A stretch of 5,961 nt of DNA from a virus (taxonomy: Duplodnaviria; Heunggongvirae; Uroviricota; Caudoviricetes): the IMG/VR virus record IMGVR_UViG_2657245112_000002, positions 1-5,961 of that record, one strand, 5' to 3'. Shown in pieces: positions 9 to 4,608 of this stretch. A model generated the notes under the pieces. It saw nothing but the letters and a program-made list of their open reading frames with translations, was not told where the DNA came from and did not search any database. The translations under genes and the position numbers were made by a program. The stretch's first letter is position 1; every line of letters starts with the position of its first letter.

Positions 9-156
9 TGAATTTTGTGATGCGGTGCCTGGTGCCTCCAGGTGACGTTAACCAGTTAACAATTAACGCCGGATACAGAGAATCCACCCATAACACTGTT
101 TTTGGTTTTAACTGTTCCGCGTGCGCTGAGCCGCATTCACCGCATCACAAAATTCA
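9..156. repeat. 19-bp perfect inverted repeat pair (9-27 and 138-156) flanking a 110-bp spacer with nested palindromes
   Basis: tgaattttgtgatgcggtg at 9-27 is the exact reverse complement of caccgcatcacaaaattca at 138-156. The spacer holds palindrome cctgg-tgcct-ccagg (28-42) and GTTAAC-ca-GTTAAC-aa-TTAAC (47-65). Function unknown. Confidence 0.8.
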
Positions 157-558
157 CTTTTAAAAAAGGGCGGCAGAGCAGTCACGGAGTAAAACTGATA
201 CCGCCAAATGTCACCAGAATATTGATAACAGAGGGCGTTGTAGCGGGGTTGTCACTTAAGCGTATGGTCAACCTGACAACCCGGTGTCCTCAACTGGGGA
301 AGGAATAACCCCGCCATACTTACCGCCGCGCCATTTCGCGGAGTGCCACAACCGGAAGCGCACGTTCGAAGAAATCTAACGACAAGCCTTCTAAGGGAAA
401 GAGCTTCGCCGTACGCTTTCGCGTTATGCCCTGACTTTTCAGGGAAATATCCTTTCAGTAAACTGTCAGTACCGGATTCTTATCCGTGTCCGGCGCACGA
501 CCACACGTGACAGCGTGTTGGTCTCCATTTTTAACCCAGAACCTCAATGGAGGATAAA

Positions 559-768: not shown

Positions 769-1419
769 TTACCAGTCAATCCAGAGTGGACCGTGTTCAG
801 CGTAAATATAACTGTACACATCCAGATTATATTTGTGGTCTGTTAAGAACAGGCCGCAAATACATGCCGAAGCTTCCAGTGCAGCGGCTCTGTTACTGAA
901 TAACCATGTAGCAACATTCCAGCGTTTTTCTGCATCCCAGTCTTTCTCAAGGCCTGATACCATGAAGAAACCGTTAGTGTTGCCATCAAATAATTCTGTT
1001 TCCAAATTTTTAAGCAATGCCTGATGGACTCTTGCCAGGTATTCCGCCGGAATTTCGCCACGAATTCTGATGAGATTGTCATAAACAAACATGTTCCCCG
1101 CATATGGCGATTTTTCTTTCTTGTTTTTTAAACCAGCATCATGAGCAAACTGATCAATTTCTTCTTCCGTTGGTTTCGTATTGATGTTTTGCGCTGTCGT
1201 TTCTGCAATTTTATTTGCCACACTCTCTGAGTCGTGTTTATTTATAGACGCACAGAAATACAATCCGGTAAACGCATCGCGCACATTACGAGCCATATTA
1301 TCAGTGTCTTTTTTCGTTACCGATTCCAATTCAAGTTCGTTCAGACGATGACGAAGTGTGTGTGCTGCAATCTCCTGGATTGAAGGAGGTAAATCTTTAA
1401 ATTCCATCGTCAACCTCAT
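769..1419 (-). CDS. hypothetical protein, 216 aa (212 aa from ATG 1407); unknown function, candidate prophage cargo/defence protein
   Basis: Longest ORF on the minus strand here. ATG 1419..1417 overlaps the TAA of the upstream small gene (TAATG); alternative ATG 1407..1405 is preceded by GAGG with a 6-nt spacer. Sampled stretches are about 35-40% GC versus about 60% in a sampled stretch of the DnaC-like gene. Hydrophilic; no catalytic motif recognised by eye. Confidence 0.75.
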   Translation of the reverse strand: MRLTMEFKDLPPSIQEIAAHTLRHRLNELELESVTKKDTDNMARNVRDAFTGLYFCASINKHDSESVANKIAETTAQNINTKPTEEEIDQFAHDAGLKNKKEKSPYAGNMFVYDNLIRIRGEIPAEYLARVHQALLKNLETELFDGNTNGFFMVSGLEKDWDAEKRWNVATWLFSNRAAALEASACICGLFLTDHKYNLDVYSYIYAEHGPLWIDW

Positions 1420-1571
1420 TAGTCGGAGTTTCTTGCTAACCAGCGATGCGCGCCAGCTTCGGTTTTAAACGATTTGCTTTTGGTATACGTCATGGCGGTG
1501 AATGTGCCGTCCTGATTGGGAAACACGCCACATACCAGAGATTCGTTGTTGCCAAGATCGATAGTATCCAT
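1419..1571 (-). CDS. small prophage protein, 50 aa, YdaF/DUF1391-like (family assignment from memory)
   Basis: Below the ORF-track size cutoff; found by manual translation: MDTIDLGNNESLVCGVFPNQDGTFTAMTYTKSKSFKTEAGAHRWLARNSD. ATG 1571..1569 is preceded by GAGG with a 5-nt spacer; stop TAA 1421..1419. Resembles the ~51-aa small proteins found near the repressor in E. coli Rac-like prophages. Confidence 0.55.
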   Translation of the reverse strand: MDTIDLGNNESLVCGVFPNQDGTFTAMTYTKSKSFKTEAGAHRWLARNSD

Positions 1572-1756
1572 GTTGACCTCATTTACCCTTAACGCCGGGT
1601 CGCGGAACTAAAAACCTGCTGCGCTGTTATACAAAGTGTTCCCGCCGTCATGTTCATACGCCTCGGGCTGGCTACTTAACCCCTGACCACTGCCGGGTAA
1701 CTCGAAGTATTGCCCTGCGTTCTGTTGAATGGGGTGGGTTGGTGAAACAAGGATGC

Positions 1757-1794
1757 ACTTTTAAAGTTATTATGTCAACACTTATAAAGTTAGG
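1757..1794. promoter_or_regulatory. putative left operator/promoter: two operator-like palindromes flanking a perfect TTGACA on the minus strand
   Basis: ACTTTtAAAGT at 1758-1768 is identical to the 11-mer at 2822-2832 in the repressor/cro intergenic region. A one-mismatch copy ACTTAtAAAGT lies at 1782-1792. Minus-strand TTGACA at 1778..1773 sits between them; the matching -10 is weak (CATCCT). Confidence 0.4.
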
Positions 1795-1802
1795 TTGTGA
1801 GC

Positions 1803-1829
1803 AACAAAAACCGCCTCGAGATGAGACGG
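1803..1829 (-). terminator. intrinsic terminator downstream of the ParE-like toxin gene
   Basis: Minus-strand RNA CCGUCUC-AUCUC-GAGGCGG forms a 7-bp stem (one G-U pair) with a 5-nt loop, followed by UUUUUGUUG. The hairpin begins 13 nt after the toxin stop codon. Confidence 0.5.
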
Positions 1830-1842
1830 CCCTGTGAAAGGG

Positions 1843-2130
1843 TTAGTTCTGCTTGGGGAATTGGCGTCTGGCGTGTACTACACTCACGATCTCAATGCTT
1901 AAAGTGGCTACACGGTAAAGAATTATATAGTTAGGGTGAGCTACAATCTCACGCAAGCCAGGTACTCTGTCGCTTGGTGGGTATAAATACGGGTGTTCGG
2001 ATAACGGCAGCACACACCCCCTTAATCGCTGCCATAAGCGTTCTGCCGCATCTATGTCGAAACGAGCAATATAACTAGTTATATCATCTAGGTCGGTATC
2101 TGCGCTTTCAAGCCATAACACGGGTAACAT
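1843..2130 (-). CDS. parE2: ParE/RelE-superfamily type II toxin, 95 aa (ParE2-like)
   Basis: Sequence pattern typical of ParE toxins (…DLDDITSYIA…LREIVAHPNYIILYRV…IEIVSVVHARR). Start ATG 2130 lies 3 nt after the antitoxin stop, with GGAG inside the antitoxin 3' end. Symbol assigned from locus architecture, not exact sequence recall. Confidence 0.85.
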   Translation of the reverse strand: MLPVLWLESADTDLDDITSYIARFDIDAAERLWQRLRGCVLPLSEHPYLYPPSDRVPGLREIVAHPNYIILYRVATLSIEIVSVVHARRQFPKQN

Positions 2131-2133
2131 TTA

Positions 2134-2322
2134 CTACTTACTCCGTTCCTTGCGCATTTTAGCAAAGCGTTCTGCCATTCTGCGCTCAACCTCGTCATGG
2201 GGAATTGCTGGGCGCGGATTTGCAAGGCTCGCTGCTACTTTCGCACGCAGCCATTCGTTGTAACTGTTTTCTTGTTCAATGGTTTCGAACTCAGAAACCA
2301 TTGGTGAAAGGGCCGTATTCAT
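2134..2322 (-). CDS. paaA2: small antitoxin, 62 aa (PaaA2-like partner of ParE)
   Basis: The ORF track extends this frame to 2385, overlapping the repressor. The internal ATG at 2322..2320 is preferred: GGAGG lies 7 nt upstream and the repressor stop is at 2352-2354. Small, charged, immediately upstream of the toxin. Confidence 0.7.
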   Translation of the reverse strand: MNTALSPMVSEFETIEQENSYNEWLRAKVAASLANPRPAIPHDEVERRMAERFAKMRKERSK

Positions 2323-2351
2323 GGCACACCTCCGTCTGTGTATGGTGGTCA

Positions 2352-2759
2352 TTATGCTCGATGCCCTTTCCGGGCAGCGAGCCATCTTTCAATTGTGCGC
2401 TCCATTAACTCTTTTTTGTCTTTCATCTCCTGAAGCATTTGTCCCTGTTCTTCCTCTGGGAATGCACCAAATGTCTGAAGTAGCTCTCTTTGCTTCGGAC
2501 CTATTTTCATTGTGTCAGGTACCACAATCTGTTCGTCCTCACTTGGTGGCAACATAAACCAATATGGAGGGAATCCTGTTACTTCAGAAAGTTTATCAAG
2601 ATTAGCCATTGATGGGCTTGTGATGCCATGAACCCACTTTTGGACCGATTGTTGGGCAACACCTATTCTGCGGGCTAGTTCTGCTTGCTTAAGCCCTGTT
2701 TTTTCCAGCACCAGTTTTATCCGGTACGTGGTTATTTCAAGAGTGGTCATTCGCTTCAT
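2352..2759 (-). CDS. paaR2: XRE-family HTH transcriptional repressor, 135 aa (CI-like prophage repressor and TA regulator, PaaR2-like); no S24 peptidase domain
   Basis: N-terminal HTH signature (…LKQAELARRIGVAQQSVQKWVHGITSPSMANLDKLSEVTG…). The ~60-aa helical C-terminal tail is too short for a LexA-type autocleavage domain. Divergent from the Cro-like gene, first gene of the repressor-antitoxin-toxin operon. Confidence 0.8.
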   Translation of the reverse strand: MKRMTTLEITTYRIKLVLEKTGLKQAELARRIGVAQQSVQKWVHGITSPSMANLDKLSEVTGFPPYWFMLPPSEDEQIVVPDTMKIGPKQRELLQTFGAFPEEEQGQMLQEMKDKKELMERTIERWLAARKGHRA

Positions 2760-2866
2760 GCATTCATTTTACACAAAAAAAGTGTAGCCAGCACAATCAG
2801 CTTGAAAGTGTTGATAGTGTAACTTTTAAAGTGTATAAGTGGTGTCGATTGATTGGAGTTAGCGAT
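2760..2866. promoter_or_regulatory. divergent promoter/operator region between repressor and Cro-like gene (right operator equivalent)
   Basis: Rightward promoter candidate TTGATA (2811-2816), 17-nt spacer, TATAAG (2834-2839), then GGAG 2855-2858 and ATG 2867. Palindrome ACTTTtAAAGT (2822-2832) lies in the spacer; AAGTG-type half-sites recur at 2806-2810, 2829-2833 and 2838-2842. Leftward candidate: -10 TAAAAT (minus, plus coordinates 2771..2766) only 6 nt before the repressor ATG. Confidence 0.5.
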
Positions 2867-3145
2867 ATGCATAAATGTTTAAAAAATAAAATTCGCCAAA
2901 TAGGGTTATCCCAAGCGGGTGTTGCTCGCTTGATTGGGTTGCCACAGCAGGTTGTATGTCGATGGGTTAATGGGCAACAGGTCCCTGCATCAAGGGTTTT
3001 ACAACTATGTGAGATTATGGCGTGGACTGTCACCCCCCACGAGCTCCGACCAGATATTTACCCTAACCCAACCGATGGCCTGCCTTGTGGACGTAAGAGT
3101 ACAGCGAATGAATTACTGGCGGTGAACAATGAAAATCACACCTGA
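2867..3145 (+). CDS. ydaS: Cro/YdaS-like HTH DNA-binding protein, 92 aa
   Basis: ORF-track frame 2831..3145 starts at GTG. ATG 2867 is preferred because GGAG at 2855-2858 precedes it. HTH signature (…IGLSQAGVARLIGLPQQVVCRWVNGQQVPASR…). Divergent from the repressor. Symbol by position and family, not exact recall. Confidence 0.7.
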   Translation: MHKCLKNKIRQIGLSQAGVARLIGLPQQVVCRWVNGQQVPASRVLQLCEIMAWTVTPHELRPDIYPNPTDGLPCGRKSTANELLAVNNENHT

Positions 3146-3650
3146 ACAGGTTTGCGAGGCTCTGGATGCCTGGGTATGCAGACCAGGAATGACGCAGGAG
3201 CAGGCGACGATATTAATTACTGAAGCCTTCTGGGCTCTACAGGAACGCCCGAACATCGATGTTCAGCGTGTCACGCTTGATGATGGCGGGGTTGATCAGC
3301 GTGCGCTTGGCGTTAACCGGGTGAAGATATTCGAACGCTGGAAGGCTATCGACACCAGGGATAAGCGTGAAAAATTCACGGCGCTGATTCCGGCAATTAT
3401 GGAGGCTATCCGGATTAGTGATTTCAGGTTGTACCGCGAAATTACTGACGGAAAAAGCATTACGTACATGATTGCCGGGTTAAACAAAGAATATGGCGAT
3501 GTGGTGGAGTCCGGGCTGCTTTTTGCAGATCCAGCTGTTGTGGAACGTGAGACAGACGAGCTTATAGAAAAAGCAATCGCTTTCAAGCGTGCCTATCGTC
3601 ACCAGTACCAACAAAAAGCCGGATGGAATTATGAGCCTTCTTTTTGCTGA
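3129..3650 (+). CDS. ydaT: YdaT-like protein, 173 aa (proposed CII functional analogue)
   Basis: Overlaps the Cro-like gene 3' end by 17 nt. Occupies the cII position between the Cro-like and O-like genes, as in Rac/CP-933P-type prophages. Assignment is by position and size, not exact sequence recall. Confidence 0.6.
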   Translation: MKITPEQVCEALDAWVCRPGMTQEQATILITEAFWALQERPNIDVQRVTLDDGGVDQRALGVNRVKIFERWKAIDTRDKREKFTALIPAIMEAIRISDFRLYREITDGKSITYMIAGLNKEYGDVVESGLLFADPAVVERETDELIEKAIAFKRAYRHQYQQKAGWNYEPSFC

Positions 3651-4608
3651 ACGCCCGCTGGTTATAAACACACAGCTGGCGATGAAGATTGGTTTAAACG
3701 AAGCCATTGTGTTGCAGCAACTGCATTACTGGTTGAGGGATACCAGTTCCGGCATGGAATGTGATGGCGTTCGCTGGATTTACAACACAACGGAACAATG
3801 GCTGGAACAGTTTCCGTTCTGGTCAGAGTCAACGTTAAAGCGTGCGTTTGCAAGTCTGAAAGCGCTGGGGCTTTTGCGTAGCGAAAAGCTCAATAAATCG
3901 AAGCGTGATATGACTAATTTTTACACAATTAACTACGATAGCGCGCTTTTAGATGATGGCAAAGTGAACGAATCCATCGGGTCAAAATGCGCCACTCCAT
4001 CAGGTCAAAATGACACGATGGAAGAGGTCAAAATGAAACGTTCCATTGGTTCAAAACGGCCCAATGTCATCAGGTCAAAATGGCCCGATGATCCTACAGA
4101 GAATACAACAGAGAATACAACAGAGAATACAACAGAGAATAAAAAACTCTCTTGTCCGGACGCTTCGCAACCGGACGAGTTGACGGCTGAACAGGCGTTT
4201 TTAACCCGCCATCCTGATGCTGTTGTGTTCAGCGTGAAAAAACGCCAGTGGGGAACCCGGGAGGATTTGACATGTGCGCAGTGGATCTGGGGGCGGGTTG
4301 TAAACCTGTACGAACAGGCTGCCAGCGACGATGGAGAGATCACGCGACCGAAAGAGCCCAACTGGACGGCGTGGGCCAATGACGTGCGCACAATGCGGAT
4401 GCTGGATGGAAGAAGTCACAGACAAATTTGCGAAATGTTCAGCCGGGCACAACGGGATCCGTTCTGGATAAAAAACATCAAGAGCCCGGAAAAACTCCGT
4501 GAGAAATGGGATGAACTGGTTATTCGACTGTGGCGTGGTCCCGCGCAGCGTTGCGTGAATCATATTTCTGAACCGGATACCGAAATTCCGCCGGGTTTCA
4601 GGGGGTAG
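3631..4608 (+). CDS. replication initiator, lambda O-like architecture, 325 aa from ATG 3631 (339 aa from GTG 3589)
   Basis: Lies immediately upstream of the DnaC-like loader. Contains tandem DNA repeats in its central linker (…TENTTENTTENTTEN…), as oriLambda lies inside gene O. Start ATG 3631 overlaps the YdaT-like gene end by 20 nt. Stop TAG 4606-4608. Confidence 0.8.
   Translation: MSLLFAERPLVINTQLAMKIGLNEAIVLQQLHYWLRDTSSGMECDGVRWIYNTTEQWLEQFPFWSESTLKRAFASLKALGLLRSEKLNKSKRDMTNFYTINYDSALLDDGKVNESIGSKCATPSGQNDTMEEVKMKRSIGSKRPNVIRSKWPDDPTENTTENTTENTTENKKLSCPDASQPDELTAEQAFLTRHPDAVVFSVKKRQWGTREDLTCAQWIWGRVVNLYEQAASDDGEITRPKEPNWTAWANDVRTMRMLDGRSHRQICEMFSRAQRDPFWIKNIKSPEKLREKWDELVIRLWRGPAQRCVNHISEPDTEIPPGFRG
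3978..4093. repeat. five direct iterons, 23-24 bp period, core GGTCAAAATG (putative origin initiator-binding sites)
   Basis: Core at 3980-3989, 4003-4012, 4026-4035 and 4073-4082, with degenerate copy GGTTCAAAACG at 4048-4058. Units also share CCAT/TCAT at their 3' ends. Confidence 0.6.
4096..4143. repeat. four tandem 12-bp repeats ACAGAGAATACA (three perfect, fourth ACAGAGAATAAA), A-rich; putative unwinding element
   Basis: Directly visible perfect tandem repeat. It encodes the TENT repeats of the O-like protein and is followed by aaaaaa. Confidence 0.9.

Follow-up and report, generated by a model that had tools for sequence, protein, structure and literature searches.

In this study, we analysed a 5,961-nt stretch of E. 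coli prophage DNA (the window) and found the same 11-bp palindrome on both sides of a repressor–antitoxin–toxin operon. Judging from the sequence, the copies most likely mark the left and right operators of a lambda-like switch in an E. coli prophage, and the toxin–antitoxin (TA) pair lies between them. Taken as a whole, we consider it highly credible that this is a lambdoid immunity region in which ACTTTNAAAGT would be the operator core for a repressor of the DicA/PaaR2 family, controlling PL on the left and PR/PRM on the right.

The exact palindrome ACTTTTAAAGT occurs twice in the window, at 1757-1767 and 2822-2832, and the pattern ACTTTNAAAGT has no match in the window besides these two. 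An earlier note on this DNA had put the right copy at 2822-2832 in the spacer of a rightward promoter, and that is exactly where it lies, inside the 17-nt spacer between TTGATA (2811-2816) and TATAAG (2834-2839). The left copy announced in the same note is also an exact match, one position away from the 1758-1768 given there, and its one-mismatch neighbour, ACTTATAAAGT, exists at 1780-1790, two positions away from 1782-1792. The two left copies do flank a perfect TTGACA, which is read on the minus strand (1778..1773), and the exact copy sits in the spacer of the TTGACA promoter, in agreement with the suggestion of a leftward promoter beyond the toxin gene that carries the same site. The layout and the gene identities likewise bear out the placing of a repressor–antitoxin–toxin operon between the two operator regions. 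A degenerate copy with two mismatches, AGCTTGAAAGT, which the note had overlooked, lies at 2799-2809, and the copies are 23 bp apart within the left pair and the same 23 bp apart within the right pair.

Two exact copies in the window compare with 0.01 expected by chance; at least two were found in 0 of 200 shuffles of the window, and none of 40 simulated prophage-length sequences contained an exact copy. The motif search of the prophage that the note had called for gave no further exact copy in 70.8 kb spanning the whole prophage of about 47.8 kb, and a one-mismatch search of the same 70.8 kb gave four matches, comprising three in the window region and one stray elsewhere in the prophage. A scan of 185,579 species genomes with the 15-mer TAACTTTNAAAGTGT gave single matches in unrelated taxa among the matches listed, and is uninformative because 14 specified bases in 596 Gb would be expected to yield thousands of chance matches. 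A search for the YdaT box, TTGATTN6AATCAA, gave nothing beyond chance.

Genes of the immunity region

The genes between and to the right of the two operator regions are as follows.

1843..2130, minus strand: ParE2-type toxin gene, 95 aa (Pfam ParE_toxin, 8e-16)
2134..2322, minus strand: PaaA2-type antitoxin gene, 62 aa (Pfam PaaA2, 2.7e-19)
2352..2759, minus strand: prophage repressor, 135 aa, with a 434-like N-terminal helix-turn-helix (HTH) and a DicA/PaaR2-type C-terminal domain
2867..3145, plus strand: Cro-like YdaS-family regulator, 92 aa (Pfam YdaS_toxin, 1e-10; HTH_3, 2.5e-5)
3129..3650, plus strand: YdaT-family (CII-like) regulator (Pfam YdaT_toxin, 1e-5)

Pfam found HTH families alone in the repressor (HTH_3, 1.3e-13) and no S24 peptidase or LexA-like cleavage domain. 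Its best PDB match was the 434 repressor (E = 7.5e-4, in the HTH), and its recognition helix starts with QQS like that of 434; the same PDB sequence search returned no PaaR2 or DicA structure. The repressor is 34% identical to DicA over 109 of its 135 aa (E = 2e-17). Its overall identity to PaaR2 is 33%, with 53% identity over the last 55 aa only, and its N-terminal DNA-binding domain has no homology to that of PaaR2. The gene lies upstream of paaA, co-directional with it and in the same position and on the same strand as paaR2, just the C-terminal 55 aa being homologous. Its phage homologues carry the annotation dicA or Gifsy repressor, and no phage in the phage collection had a repressor more than 60% identical. 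Taken together, the protein belongs with the DicA-family short prophage repressors, which have an HTH and a C-terminal oligomerization domain and no S24 peptidase.

The antitoxin matches PaaA2 of PDB 3zbe (1e-33) in an alignment that begins at residue 22, and the 83-aa open reading frame reaching to 2385 is over-extended by comparison with the RefSeq start, which gives 62 aa. The toxin matches ParE2 of PDB 5cw7_B (1.2e-57) and is 91% identical to the CP-933P protein; both PaaA2 and ParE2 are about 91-94% identical to the solved proteins. PaaA2 is the sole Pfam match of the antitoxin, with no DNA-binding domain, and autoregulation by PaaA2-ParE2 at the left sites was rejected for this reason (Pfam; PMC8630535). 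The Cro-like protein shares 25% local identity with YdaS of CP-933P over 79 aa (E = 0.003), and a CII-like role for the YdaT protein is suggested by analogy (PMC8630535; PMC9986795). The prophage looks complete, from integrase through tail fibres, and is integrated at ydfJ, the Qin site. Of 5,426 complete E. coli genomes, about 46 carry the window type, and several of these are STEC (Shiga-toxin-producing) by strain name.

Right and left promoter/operator cassettes

The left and right regions form mirror-image promoter/operator cassettes, each made up of a site, a -35 element, a second site and a -10 element. The order site, G, -35, 5 nt, site, G, -10 is the same at PL and PR, and a 31-nt inverted repeat (1753-1783 versus 2806-2836) is 81% complementary. 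Both putative sigma-70 promoters have a good -35 (TTGACA at PL, TTGATA at PR), 17-nt spacing and an imperfect -10. The likeness of PL and PR could partly stem from common descent of the promoter cassette. The elements of the right cassette are the following.

2766..2771, minus strand: putative -10 of PRM, TAAAAT, 6 nt ahead of the repressor ATG at 2759
2771..2785, unstranded: candidate OR3, ACACAAAAAAAGTGT, overlapping PRM (the sole ACAC-N7-GTGT in 70.8 kb)
2797..2811, plus strand: OR2, candidate operator abutting the PR -35, TCAGCTTGAAAGTGT (core 2799-2809, two mismatches; centre 23 bp from OR1)
2811..2816, plus strand: -35 of PR, TTGATA (conserved in homologues)
2820..2834, plus strand: OR1, candidate operator in the PR spacer, TAACTTTTAAAGTGT (core 2822-2832)
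2834..2839, plus strand: putative -10 of PR, TATAAG (TATAAA or TATAAC in homologues)

Each 11-mer probably forms the middle of a 15-bp site, with probably three such sites in the right cassette and two in the left; judged from sequence, the operator could extend over 11, 13 or 15 bp, with more than one possible register. For an HTH dimer, a palindrome of just 11 bp would be short. OR3 retains only the outer ACAC/GTGT and one AAAGT arm; it is kept in the homologues save for one C-to-T change, and the counterpart position in the A8 type reads ACAGGTAAATACTGT. The repressor mRNA is probably leaderless, because the putative PRM -10 stands just 6 nt before the ATG. The same 6-nt gap is found in the A8 type and in CP-933P, and in the latter the PRM start has been mapped to the A of the ATG, the paaR2 mRNA being leaderless (PMC8630535).

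The left cassette and its surroundings contain the following elements.

1806..1829, minus strand: intrinsic terminator of the repressor–antitoxin–toxin operon (CCGUCUC / GAGGCGG, then UUUUU)
1778..1792, minus strand: OL2, candidate operator abutting the PL -35, TAACTTTATAAGTGT (core 1780-1790; centre 23 bp from OL1)
1773..1778, minus strand: -35 of PL, perfect TTGACA (conserved in 5 of 5 homologues)
1755..1769, minus strand: OL1, candidate operator in the PL spacer, TAACTTTAAAAGTGC (11-mer core 1757-1767)
1750..1755, minus strand: putative -10 of the leftward promoter PL, CATCCT, read from the sequence (CATTCT in homologues)
1572..1745, minus strand: untranslated leader of the PL transcript, conserved between heteroimmune prophages
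1419..1571, minus strand: ydfA (DUF1391), first gene of the PL/dicB operon (Pfam DUF1391, 2.9e-29; K-12 Qin synteny)
168..219, minus strand: DicF sRNA, distal product of the PL operon (Rfam RF00039, 77 bits, E = 2.7e-16)

The putative PL -10 stands 17 nt from TTGACA and has A at position 2, T at position 6 and three matches out of six; its positional counterparts are TAATCT in K-12 dicBp and TAGATT in the A8 type. With just three matches it was absent from the consensus promoter scan, and the PR -10 was unlisted because it has no T at position 6. More generally, PL, PR, PRM and the parE terminator were all unlisted by the generic promoter/terminator scanner, whose cut-offs reject both their imperfect -10 elements and a terminator stem with a G-U pair in it. 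Folding did recover the terminator (-16.8 kcal/mol, z = -2.5). In all 10 loci folded, a hairpin follows parE at the same place; the U run comes next to it in most of them, but is missing in the two CP-933P-type loci and unclear in locus L013. This terminator lies between the toxin gene and the left operators and would close the PRM operon ahead of PL. Rightward of 1792, where the terminator occupies the space, a search for a third left operator found none.

PL appears to correspond to lambda PL and to K-12 dicBp, leading into ydfA ... DicF, dicB, and dicB is annotated adjacent to DicF, just past the window end. An Rfam search of the conserved PL leader gave no match, and near-identity matches in the phage collection were confined to the leader and the ydfA side of the window.

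Conservation and co-variation with immunity type

In four homologous loci (about 85-87% nucleotide identity), the motif is found at exactly both corresponding places, with the central base alone varying, and OL1 is unchanged in five homologues apart from that base. The block 1755-1794 is near-invariant in the homologues; the adjoining 1795-1842 is scrambled.

Operator sequence varies together with repressor/Cro specificity across five immunity types (six loci), PL giving its best match to the OR region of its own type every time. In strain A8, whose repressor is 64% identical to that of the window, the operator is a different 15-mer, ACA[AG]N7[CT]TGT, which occurs only five times in the locus, twice at OL and three times at OR, in the same layout as in the window. 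CP-933P, NCTC9112 and K-12 Qin each have their own type-specific words common to PL and OR. Strain 00-3076 has an extra, orphan repressor gene, and its PL corresponds to the OR/cro type instead of to that gene. In L013, PL goes with the OR/cro type.

Proposed switch and alternative explanations

From the observed sites, with their layout, conservation and co-variation, and from the gene identities, we infer how binding, promoter activity, cooperativity, activation and looping might combine in this region. OR1, OR2 and OR3 would cover back-to-back PR and PRM, of which PR would drive ydaS-ydaT-O-P and PRM the leaderless repressor-paaA-parE transcript. OL1, in the PL spacer, and OL2, just upstream of the PL -35, would govern PL, which would drive ydfA ... 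DicF, dicB, and the PaaA2-ParE2 pair would fill the slot between cI and OL that rexAB has in lambda. Repressor dimers would fill OR1/OR2 and OL1/OL2 cooperatively at the 23-bp spacing and so shut PR and PL; occupancy of OR2 beside PRM would probably stimulate PRM, and OR3 would shut PRM at high repressor levels. The Cro-like YdaS protein very probably recognizes the repressor sites as well. Looping between OL and OR over about 1.07 kb is possible, since PaaR2, which forms octamers, has a homologous C-terminal domain. Between the N-terminal DNA-binding domains of the two repressors there is no homology, so the experiments on CP-933P carry over only by analogy of layout.

The shared sequence might reflect nothing but the common ancestry of a duplicated PL/PR core, with no protein-binding operator in it, and the likeness does span 31 nt including the -35 and spacer, beyond the palindrome. 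However, the arms are invariant across homologues that are about 85-87% identical whereas the central and adjacent spacer bases vary, each switch of repressor/Cro type is matched by a parallel change of the block at the two loci, and the equivalent blocks of CP-933P are footprinted (OR) or repressed (PL) by its regulators, so that mere ancestry seems to us quite improbable. Chance recurrence of an 11-mer has a negligible probability: the palindrome is A/T-rich and recurs with one mismatch at a stray position elsewhere in the prophage, but the expectation, shuffles and simulated sequences reported above speak against it, as do the conserved motif positions in the homologues.

We consider it unlikely that the 135-aa repressor leaves the sites alone and that the Cro-like YdaS, or a host nucleoid protein drawn to A/T-rich DNA, is their main or sole ligand. 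In CP-933P, YdaS occupies the region bound by PaaR2 and is as strong a repressor of PL, PR and PRM, and the site is A/T-rich; nevertheless, the repressor HTH resembles that of 434 cI, with a recognition helix that likewise starts QQS, and 434-like ACA...TGT operators go with the related repressor of the A8 type. A host factor would also fail to explain why the site sequences switch with immunity type, and the sharing of sites by Cro and repressor is the norm and already forms part of the switch proposed above. Control of no promoter at all by the left sites (1755-1792), which would then be auxiliary looping operators for PR/PRM or a decayed relic of a cryptic prophage, is very improbable. The weak CATCCT, unlisted by the scan, is compatible with this explanation, as is the octamerization of PaaR2, for which looping has been proposed in CP-933P. 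Yet the perfect TTGACA at 17-nt spacing is conserved in all homologues, its position matches the K-12 dicB-operon promoter region and the active PL933P, and downstream, on that same strand, come the conserved leader, ydfA, DicF and dicB; the apparent completeness of the prophage argues against a relic. Operators that serve both PL and PR/PRM in a lambda-like switch are our preferred explanation of the repeated palindrome.

Possible module exchange and significance

A nearly identical TA pair (about 90-94% identity) is found within at least three heteroimmune regions, and a diverged allele (about 67-68%) in a fourth. It is conceivable, although we regard it as rather doubtful, that PaaA2-ParE2 stays in place as an addictive core while the immunity specificity around it is exchanged in two pieces that are not contiguous, and that the repressor may also loop the 1.07-kb segment. 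In such an exchange, one piece would be the OL/PL block on one side and the other the HTH domain, OR and cro on the other side. The looped segment would hold the repressor's own gene and the TA pair. If this is true, the TA module is carried through heteroimmune recombination, contrary to the proposal made for CP-933P that it prevents such recombination, and OL and OR must be replaced together across the retained island.

The window provides a second, heteroimmune example of a prophage switch that has a TA pair lodged between its left and its right operators, and leaves the current picture of such switches unchanged. A clean operator candidate together with a natural specificity swap may help to reveal how DicA/PaaR2-type repressors read DNA. 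The system could also be used to ask whether the conserved C-terminal domain drives OL-OR looping and how the dicB/DicF cell-division-inhibitor operon stays silent.

Comparison with known systems

The operators of the window resemble those of phage 434 in being quasi-palindromic and A/T-rich at the centre, and those of the A8 relative have ACA...TGT ends. However, the similarity of the 434 repressor to that of the window is weak and confined to the HTH, the C-terminal domain of 434 cI being unrelated. The 434 operator is a 14-bp ACAA-N6-TTGT, a form that none of the window sites takes, whereas those of the window are of odd length, with an 11-bp core, about 15 bp overall and ACTTT / ACAC half-sites.

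Lambda likewise has the repressor operon and accessory genes between OL and OR, a terminator preceding PL, three right operators over divergent PR/PRM, operators in and beside promoter spacers, and a leaderless cI mRNA (PMC8630535). It differs in having three left sites and about 2.4 kb between OL and OR, compared with two sites and about 1.07 kb in the window. The window repressor lacks the S24 self-cleavage domain, the cargo is PaaA2-ParE2 instead of rexAB, and no N gene follows PL. K-12 Qin shares with the window a dicA homologue, the ydfJ integration site and the leftward operon ydfA ... dicF, dicB, and has the same operator word in the dicA-dicC intergenic region and the dicBp spacer; it differs in that no TA pair lies between dicA and dicBp, the operator is TGTTAGTCAT... 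and the leader is about 100 nt shorter.

In the sister prophage CP-933P (Sp12) of E. coli O157:H7, which carries paaR2-paaA2-parE2, PRM933P/PR933P/PL933P, ydaS and ydaT (PMC8630535; Hallez et al. 2010 as cited there), a TA pair between operators has been demonstrated experimentally (Jurenas et al. 2021; PMC8630535). There, PR and PRM lie under DNase I footprints, PaaR2 octamerizes, and PL933P, which carries OL sites and lies past parE2, is repressed about 100-fold by PaaR2 and likewise by YdaS (PMC8630535). The window has the same gene order and strands (PL on the ydfA side, parE, paaA, repressor and divergent ydaS-ydaT-O-P), TA proteins 91-94% identical, 53% identity in the C-terminal domain of the repressor, operator copies both at OR and past parE, and a homologous PL leader. 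In contrast, the N-terminal DNA-binding domains of the repressors are unrelated in sequence, Cro/YdaS is only about 21-25% identical, and the operators are of the GTTTAGTAA type in CP-933P and of the ACTTTNAAAGT type in the window, the DNA homology ending exactly at the paaA start codon. The reported CP-933P sites are OL1-3 and four inverted repeats, compared with two and three sites in the window, and CP-933P is cryptic whereas the prophage studied here appears complete. The idea is thus not new: by sequence comparison, the window is a heteroimmune member of the known CP-933P-like arrangement.

Results

Gene content and source prophage

A prophage of E. coli 2012C-4227 contains the window at 100% identity; it spans ~47.8 kb from the integrase to the tail fibres and nleC, with ydfJ (the Qin site) as its insertion point. 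Near its right end lies nleC, a type III effector gene (26410-27396 of L007), and the left side adjoins the tail-fibre end of another lambdoid prophage, with DUF1076 effector-like genes there (L001 1-5856). The window carries the following genes.

168-219, minus: full-length DicF sRNA (Rfam RF00039, 77 bits, E = 2.7e-16)
769-1419, minus: gene without assigned function
1419-1571, minus: ydfA (DUF1391)
1843-2130, minus: ParE toxin (PDB ParE2 5cw7, 1.2e-57)
2134-2322, minus: PaaA2 antitoxin (PDB 3zbe, 1e-33; Pfam PaaA2)
2352-2759, minus: HTH repressor (Pfam HTH_3)
2867-3145, plus: YdaS/Cro-like protein
3129-3650, plus: YdaT-like protein
downstream of 3650, plus: O-like and DnaC-like replication genes

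Given DicF at 168-219 and dicB annotated just past the left end of the window, the putative leftward promoter beyond the toxin gene (PL) would head the operon of the cell-division inhibitors DicF/DicB. Between DicF and dicB there is a sub-threshold match to the sRNA family STnc100 (Rfam; 14-154, minus strand, 37.4 bits, with the gathering score at 47; E = 1.4e-5). An 83-aa mechanical antitoxin ORF (to 2385, minus strand) runs into the repressor gene; PaaA2 actually starts at 2322. The O-like gene contains four exact copies of GGTCAAAATG (3980, 4003, 4026, and 4073) and a degenerate one (4049), spaced 23-24 bp apart on the plus strand (3980-4082), which look like origin iterons; directly after them, a perfect 12-bp tandem repeat (ACAGAGAATACA, 3.8 copies, 4096-4141, plus strand) encodes TENT repeats. 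A 16-nt direct repeat (94%) shared by the parE stop codon region (1840-1855, GGGTTAGTTCTGCTTG) and the repressor HTH coding region (2672-2687, GGGCTAGTTCTGCTTG) is probably due to chance.

The exact palindrome is confined to two putative promoter regions

An earlier note had claimed an identical 11-nt palindrome on both sides of the repressor-antitoxin-toxin operon, and this proved true: within the 5,961 bp of the window, ACTTTNAAAGT has two exact matches, one at 1757-1767 and one at 2822-2832, each reading ACTTTTAAAGT. The right position had been given correctly, whereas the two left ones were 1 and 2 nt too high. Dinucleotide-preserving shuffles gave a mean of 0.01 matches, with two matches in 0 of 200. 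Allowing mismatches, the window scan returned ACTTATAAAGT at 1780-1790 and a fourth copy, AGCTTGAAAGT, at 2799-2809. The note had overlooked this fourth copy, whose importance is that it stands 23 bp from the exact right copy, just as the two left copies are spaced. As the note had described, a perfect TTGACA accompanies the mismatched left copy. Throughout 70.8 kb (the entire prophage plus flanks) the exact motif occurs at the two sites only. The note had named a similar frequency of the 11-mer throughout the genome as a refutation, and over this stretch none was seen. At one mismatch, three of the four hits fell in the operator regions and the fourth was a stray, against ~1.65 expected in simulated sequence of prophage length.

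The promoter elements and proposed left (OL) and right (OR) operator sites are listed below; PR is the rightward, Cro-side promoter.

1778..1773, minus: PL -35, TTGACA (perfect), between the two left copies
17 nt downstream of TTGACA, minus: putative PL -10, CATCCT
2811-2816, plus: PR -35, TTGATA
2834-2839, plus: putative PR -10, TATAAG; 17-nt spacer, exact copy between -35 and -10
1755-1769, minus: OL1 (proposed), TAACTTTAAAAGTGC
1778-1792, minus: OL2 (proposed), TAACTTTATAAGTGT
2820-2834: OR1 (proposed), TAACTTTTAAAGTGT
2797-2811: OR2 (proposed; weak match), TCAGCTTGAAAGTGT
2771-2785: OR3 (proposed; weak match), ACACAAAAAAAGTGT

Followed along their transcription, the two regions share the order site-G-[-35]-5 nt-site-G-[-10], and an inverted-repeat search recovered them as a 31-nt inverted repeat (1753-1783 versus 2806-2836, 81% complementary). 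A consensus promoter scan of the window listed neither PL nor PR, the -10 elements being imperfect. The operator sites are probably 15 bp long, a length and register taken from positional homology with the 15-mers of the A8 type described below.

Four homologous loci (L003-L006, ~85-87% nucleotide identity) carry the motif at exactly both corresponding positions, varying at the central base alone (T or A). Aligned, these loci keep the block GCACTTTNAAAGTTATTATGTCAACACTTATAAAGTTAG (1755-1794) nearly unchanged, in contrast to the scrambled 48 nt on its right, which reach as far as the parE stop codon. In the OR region, conservation covers the exact site and both -35/-10 elements, the centre and one arm position of OR2 vary, and ACA(C/T)AAAAAAAGTGT at 2771-2785 is likewise conserved.

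A minus-strand hairpin 3' of parE (CCGUCUC/GAGGCGG then U5, 1806-1829, -16.8 kcal/mol, z = -2.5) is the putative terminator expected between the operon of the repressor promoter (PRM) and PL. Every other locus folded has a hairpin of differing sequence at this place, followed by a U run in most, though not in the two CP-933P-type loci and not clearly in L013 (strain 00-3076).

The repressor and its start codon

The repressor HTH is closest to that of 434 cI (E = 7.5e-4), with QQS beginning the recognition helix as in 434. The protein is 34% identical to K-12 DicA over 109 residues (E = 2e-17), and over the C-terminal 55 residues it shares 53% identity with PaaR2, the repressor of CP-933P, whereas the N-terminal domains do not align. 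Pfam found no S24 peptidase domain in it. ACAC-N7-GTGT occurs once in 70.8 kb, as OR3, which overlaps a minus-strand TAAAAT (2771..2766) 6 nt ahead of the ATG at 2759. Since this 6-nt geometry is common to the window, the A8 type, and CP-933P, and in CP-933P PRM transcripts have been found to begin at the A of the start codon, with leaderless translation demonstrated (PMC8630535), the evidence favours a start codon at 2759 rather than the RefSeq 2750, and a leaderless mRNA is predicted.

Proposed operators co-vary with immunity type

Strain A8 (L010, whose type L014 shares) encodes a repressor and a Cro that are 64% and 51% identical to those of the window, and its operator is unlike the window's: ACA[AG]N7[CT]TGT, with exactly five occurrences per locus. 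At PL there are two, flanking the -35 and filling the spacer (24 bp apart); the other three are in the repressor-cro intergenic region (25 and 24 bp). CP-933P, NCTC9112, and K-12 Qin each have their own set of private words common to PL and OR, and when PL and OR regions were scored against each other by best ungapped local match, each PL paired best with the OR region from its own type. Strain 00-3076 has tandem repressor genes (L013 1916-2768), the extra one lying between the toxin-antitoxin (TA) pair and the PaaR2-like repressor. This 153-aa protein is related to the window's repressor, of a further type, and without operators or promoter of its own, and its gene looks like a scar of immunity-region recombination; the PL of this strain matches its own OR/cro type rather than the orphan gene. 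Such type-wise co-variation is the pattern expected for operators that would need one regulator pair to read them. It is hard to reconcile with the likeness of PL and OR reflecting mere common descent of promoters, and equally with sites read by a host factor.

Heteroimmune prophages have a mosaic structure (window 1582-2323 versus CP-933P, L002; also L008 and L010): their leaders and TA genes are homologous, whereas the OL/PL block is replaced, as is the whole stretch that begins at the paaA start codon and takes in repressor, OR, cro, and ydaT. Despite this DNA replacement, the repressor retains a PaaR2-like C-terminal domain at the protein level. Nearly the same TA pair occurs in at least three immunity types, with a more diverged allele in a fourth. 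The untranslated PL-ydfA leader (1572-1745, minus strand, ~170 nt), without a match in Rfam, is conserved between heteroimmune prophages and is ~100 nt longer than that of K-12 Qin. Of 5,426 E. coli genomes, 3,897 match the window, at up to seven places each, and the leader is probably behind most of these matches. The window's immunity type itself is present in 46 of the 5,426 complete genomes, and the phage collection contained no sequenced phage with >60% repressor identity. At its 5' end (3118-3408) the YdaT-like gene is 89% DNA-identical to the K-12 Qin ydfX region (L012 1858-2149), although repressor and cro next to it show no DNA-level homology to Qin.

Discussion

Jurenas et al. (2021; PMC8630535) have studied the corresponding region of CP-933P, a sister prophage in O157:H7. 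Its immunity region contains paaR2-paaA2-parE2; PaaR2 and the Cro-like YdaS both footprint the 97-bp PR and PRM region, and each represses PL933P, which lies with OL1-3 beyond parE2, ~100-fold. PRM activity rises at low PaaR2, PaaR2 octamerises, and insertion of the TA pair into the immunity region was proposed by those authors (PMC8630535). Thus the earlier placement of the TA pair between left and right operators was correct in kind, a kind already established in CP-933P (PMC8630535). Cooperativity, PRM activation, and OL-OR looping may apply here by analogy with lambda and CP-933P, through C-terminal domain homology alone.

K-12 Qin follows this logic too, though it has no TA pair: TGTTAGTCAT... 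is present in the dicC-dicA interval and again in the dicBp spacer. The TA proteins of the window are 91-94% identical to PaaA2/ParE2 of CP-933P, whereas HTH domain, Cro, and operator differ, and DNA homology stops exactly at the paaA start codon. The window most likely adds a heteroimmune member to an arrangement already characterised by experiment elsewhere, and what sets it apart is its specificity.
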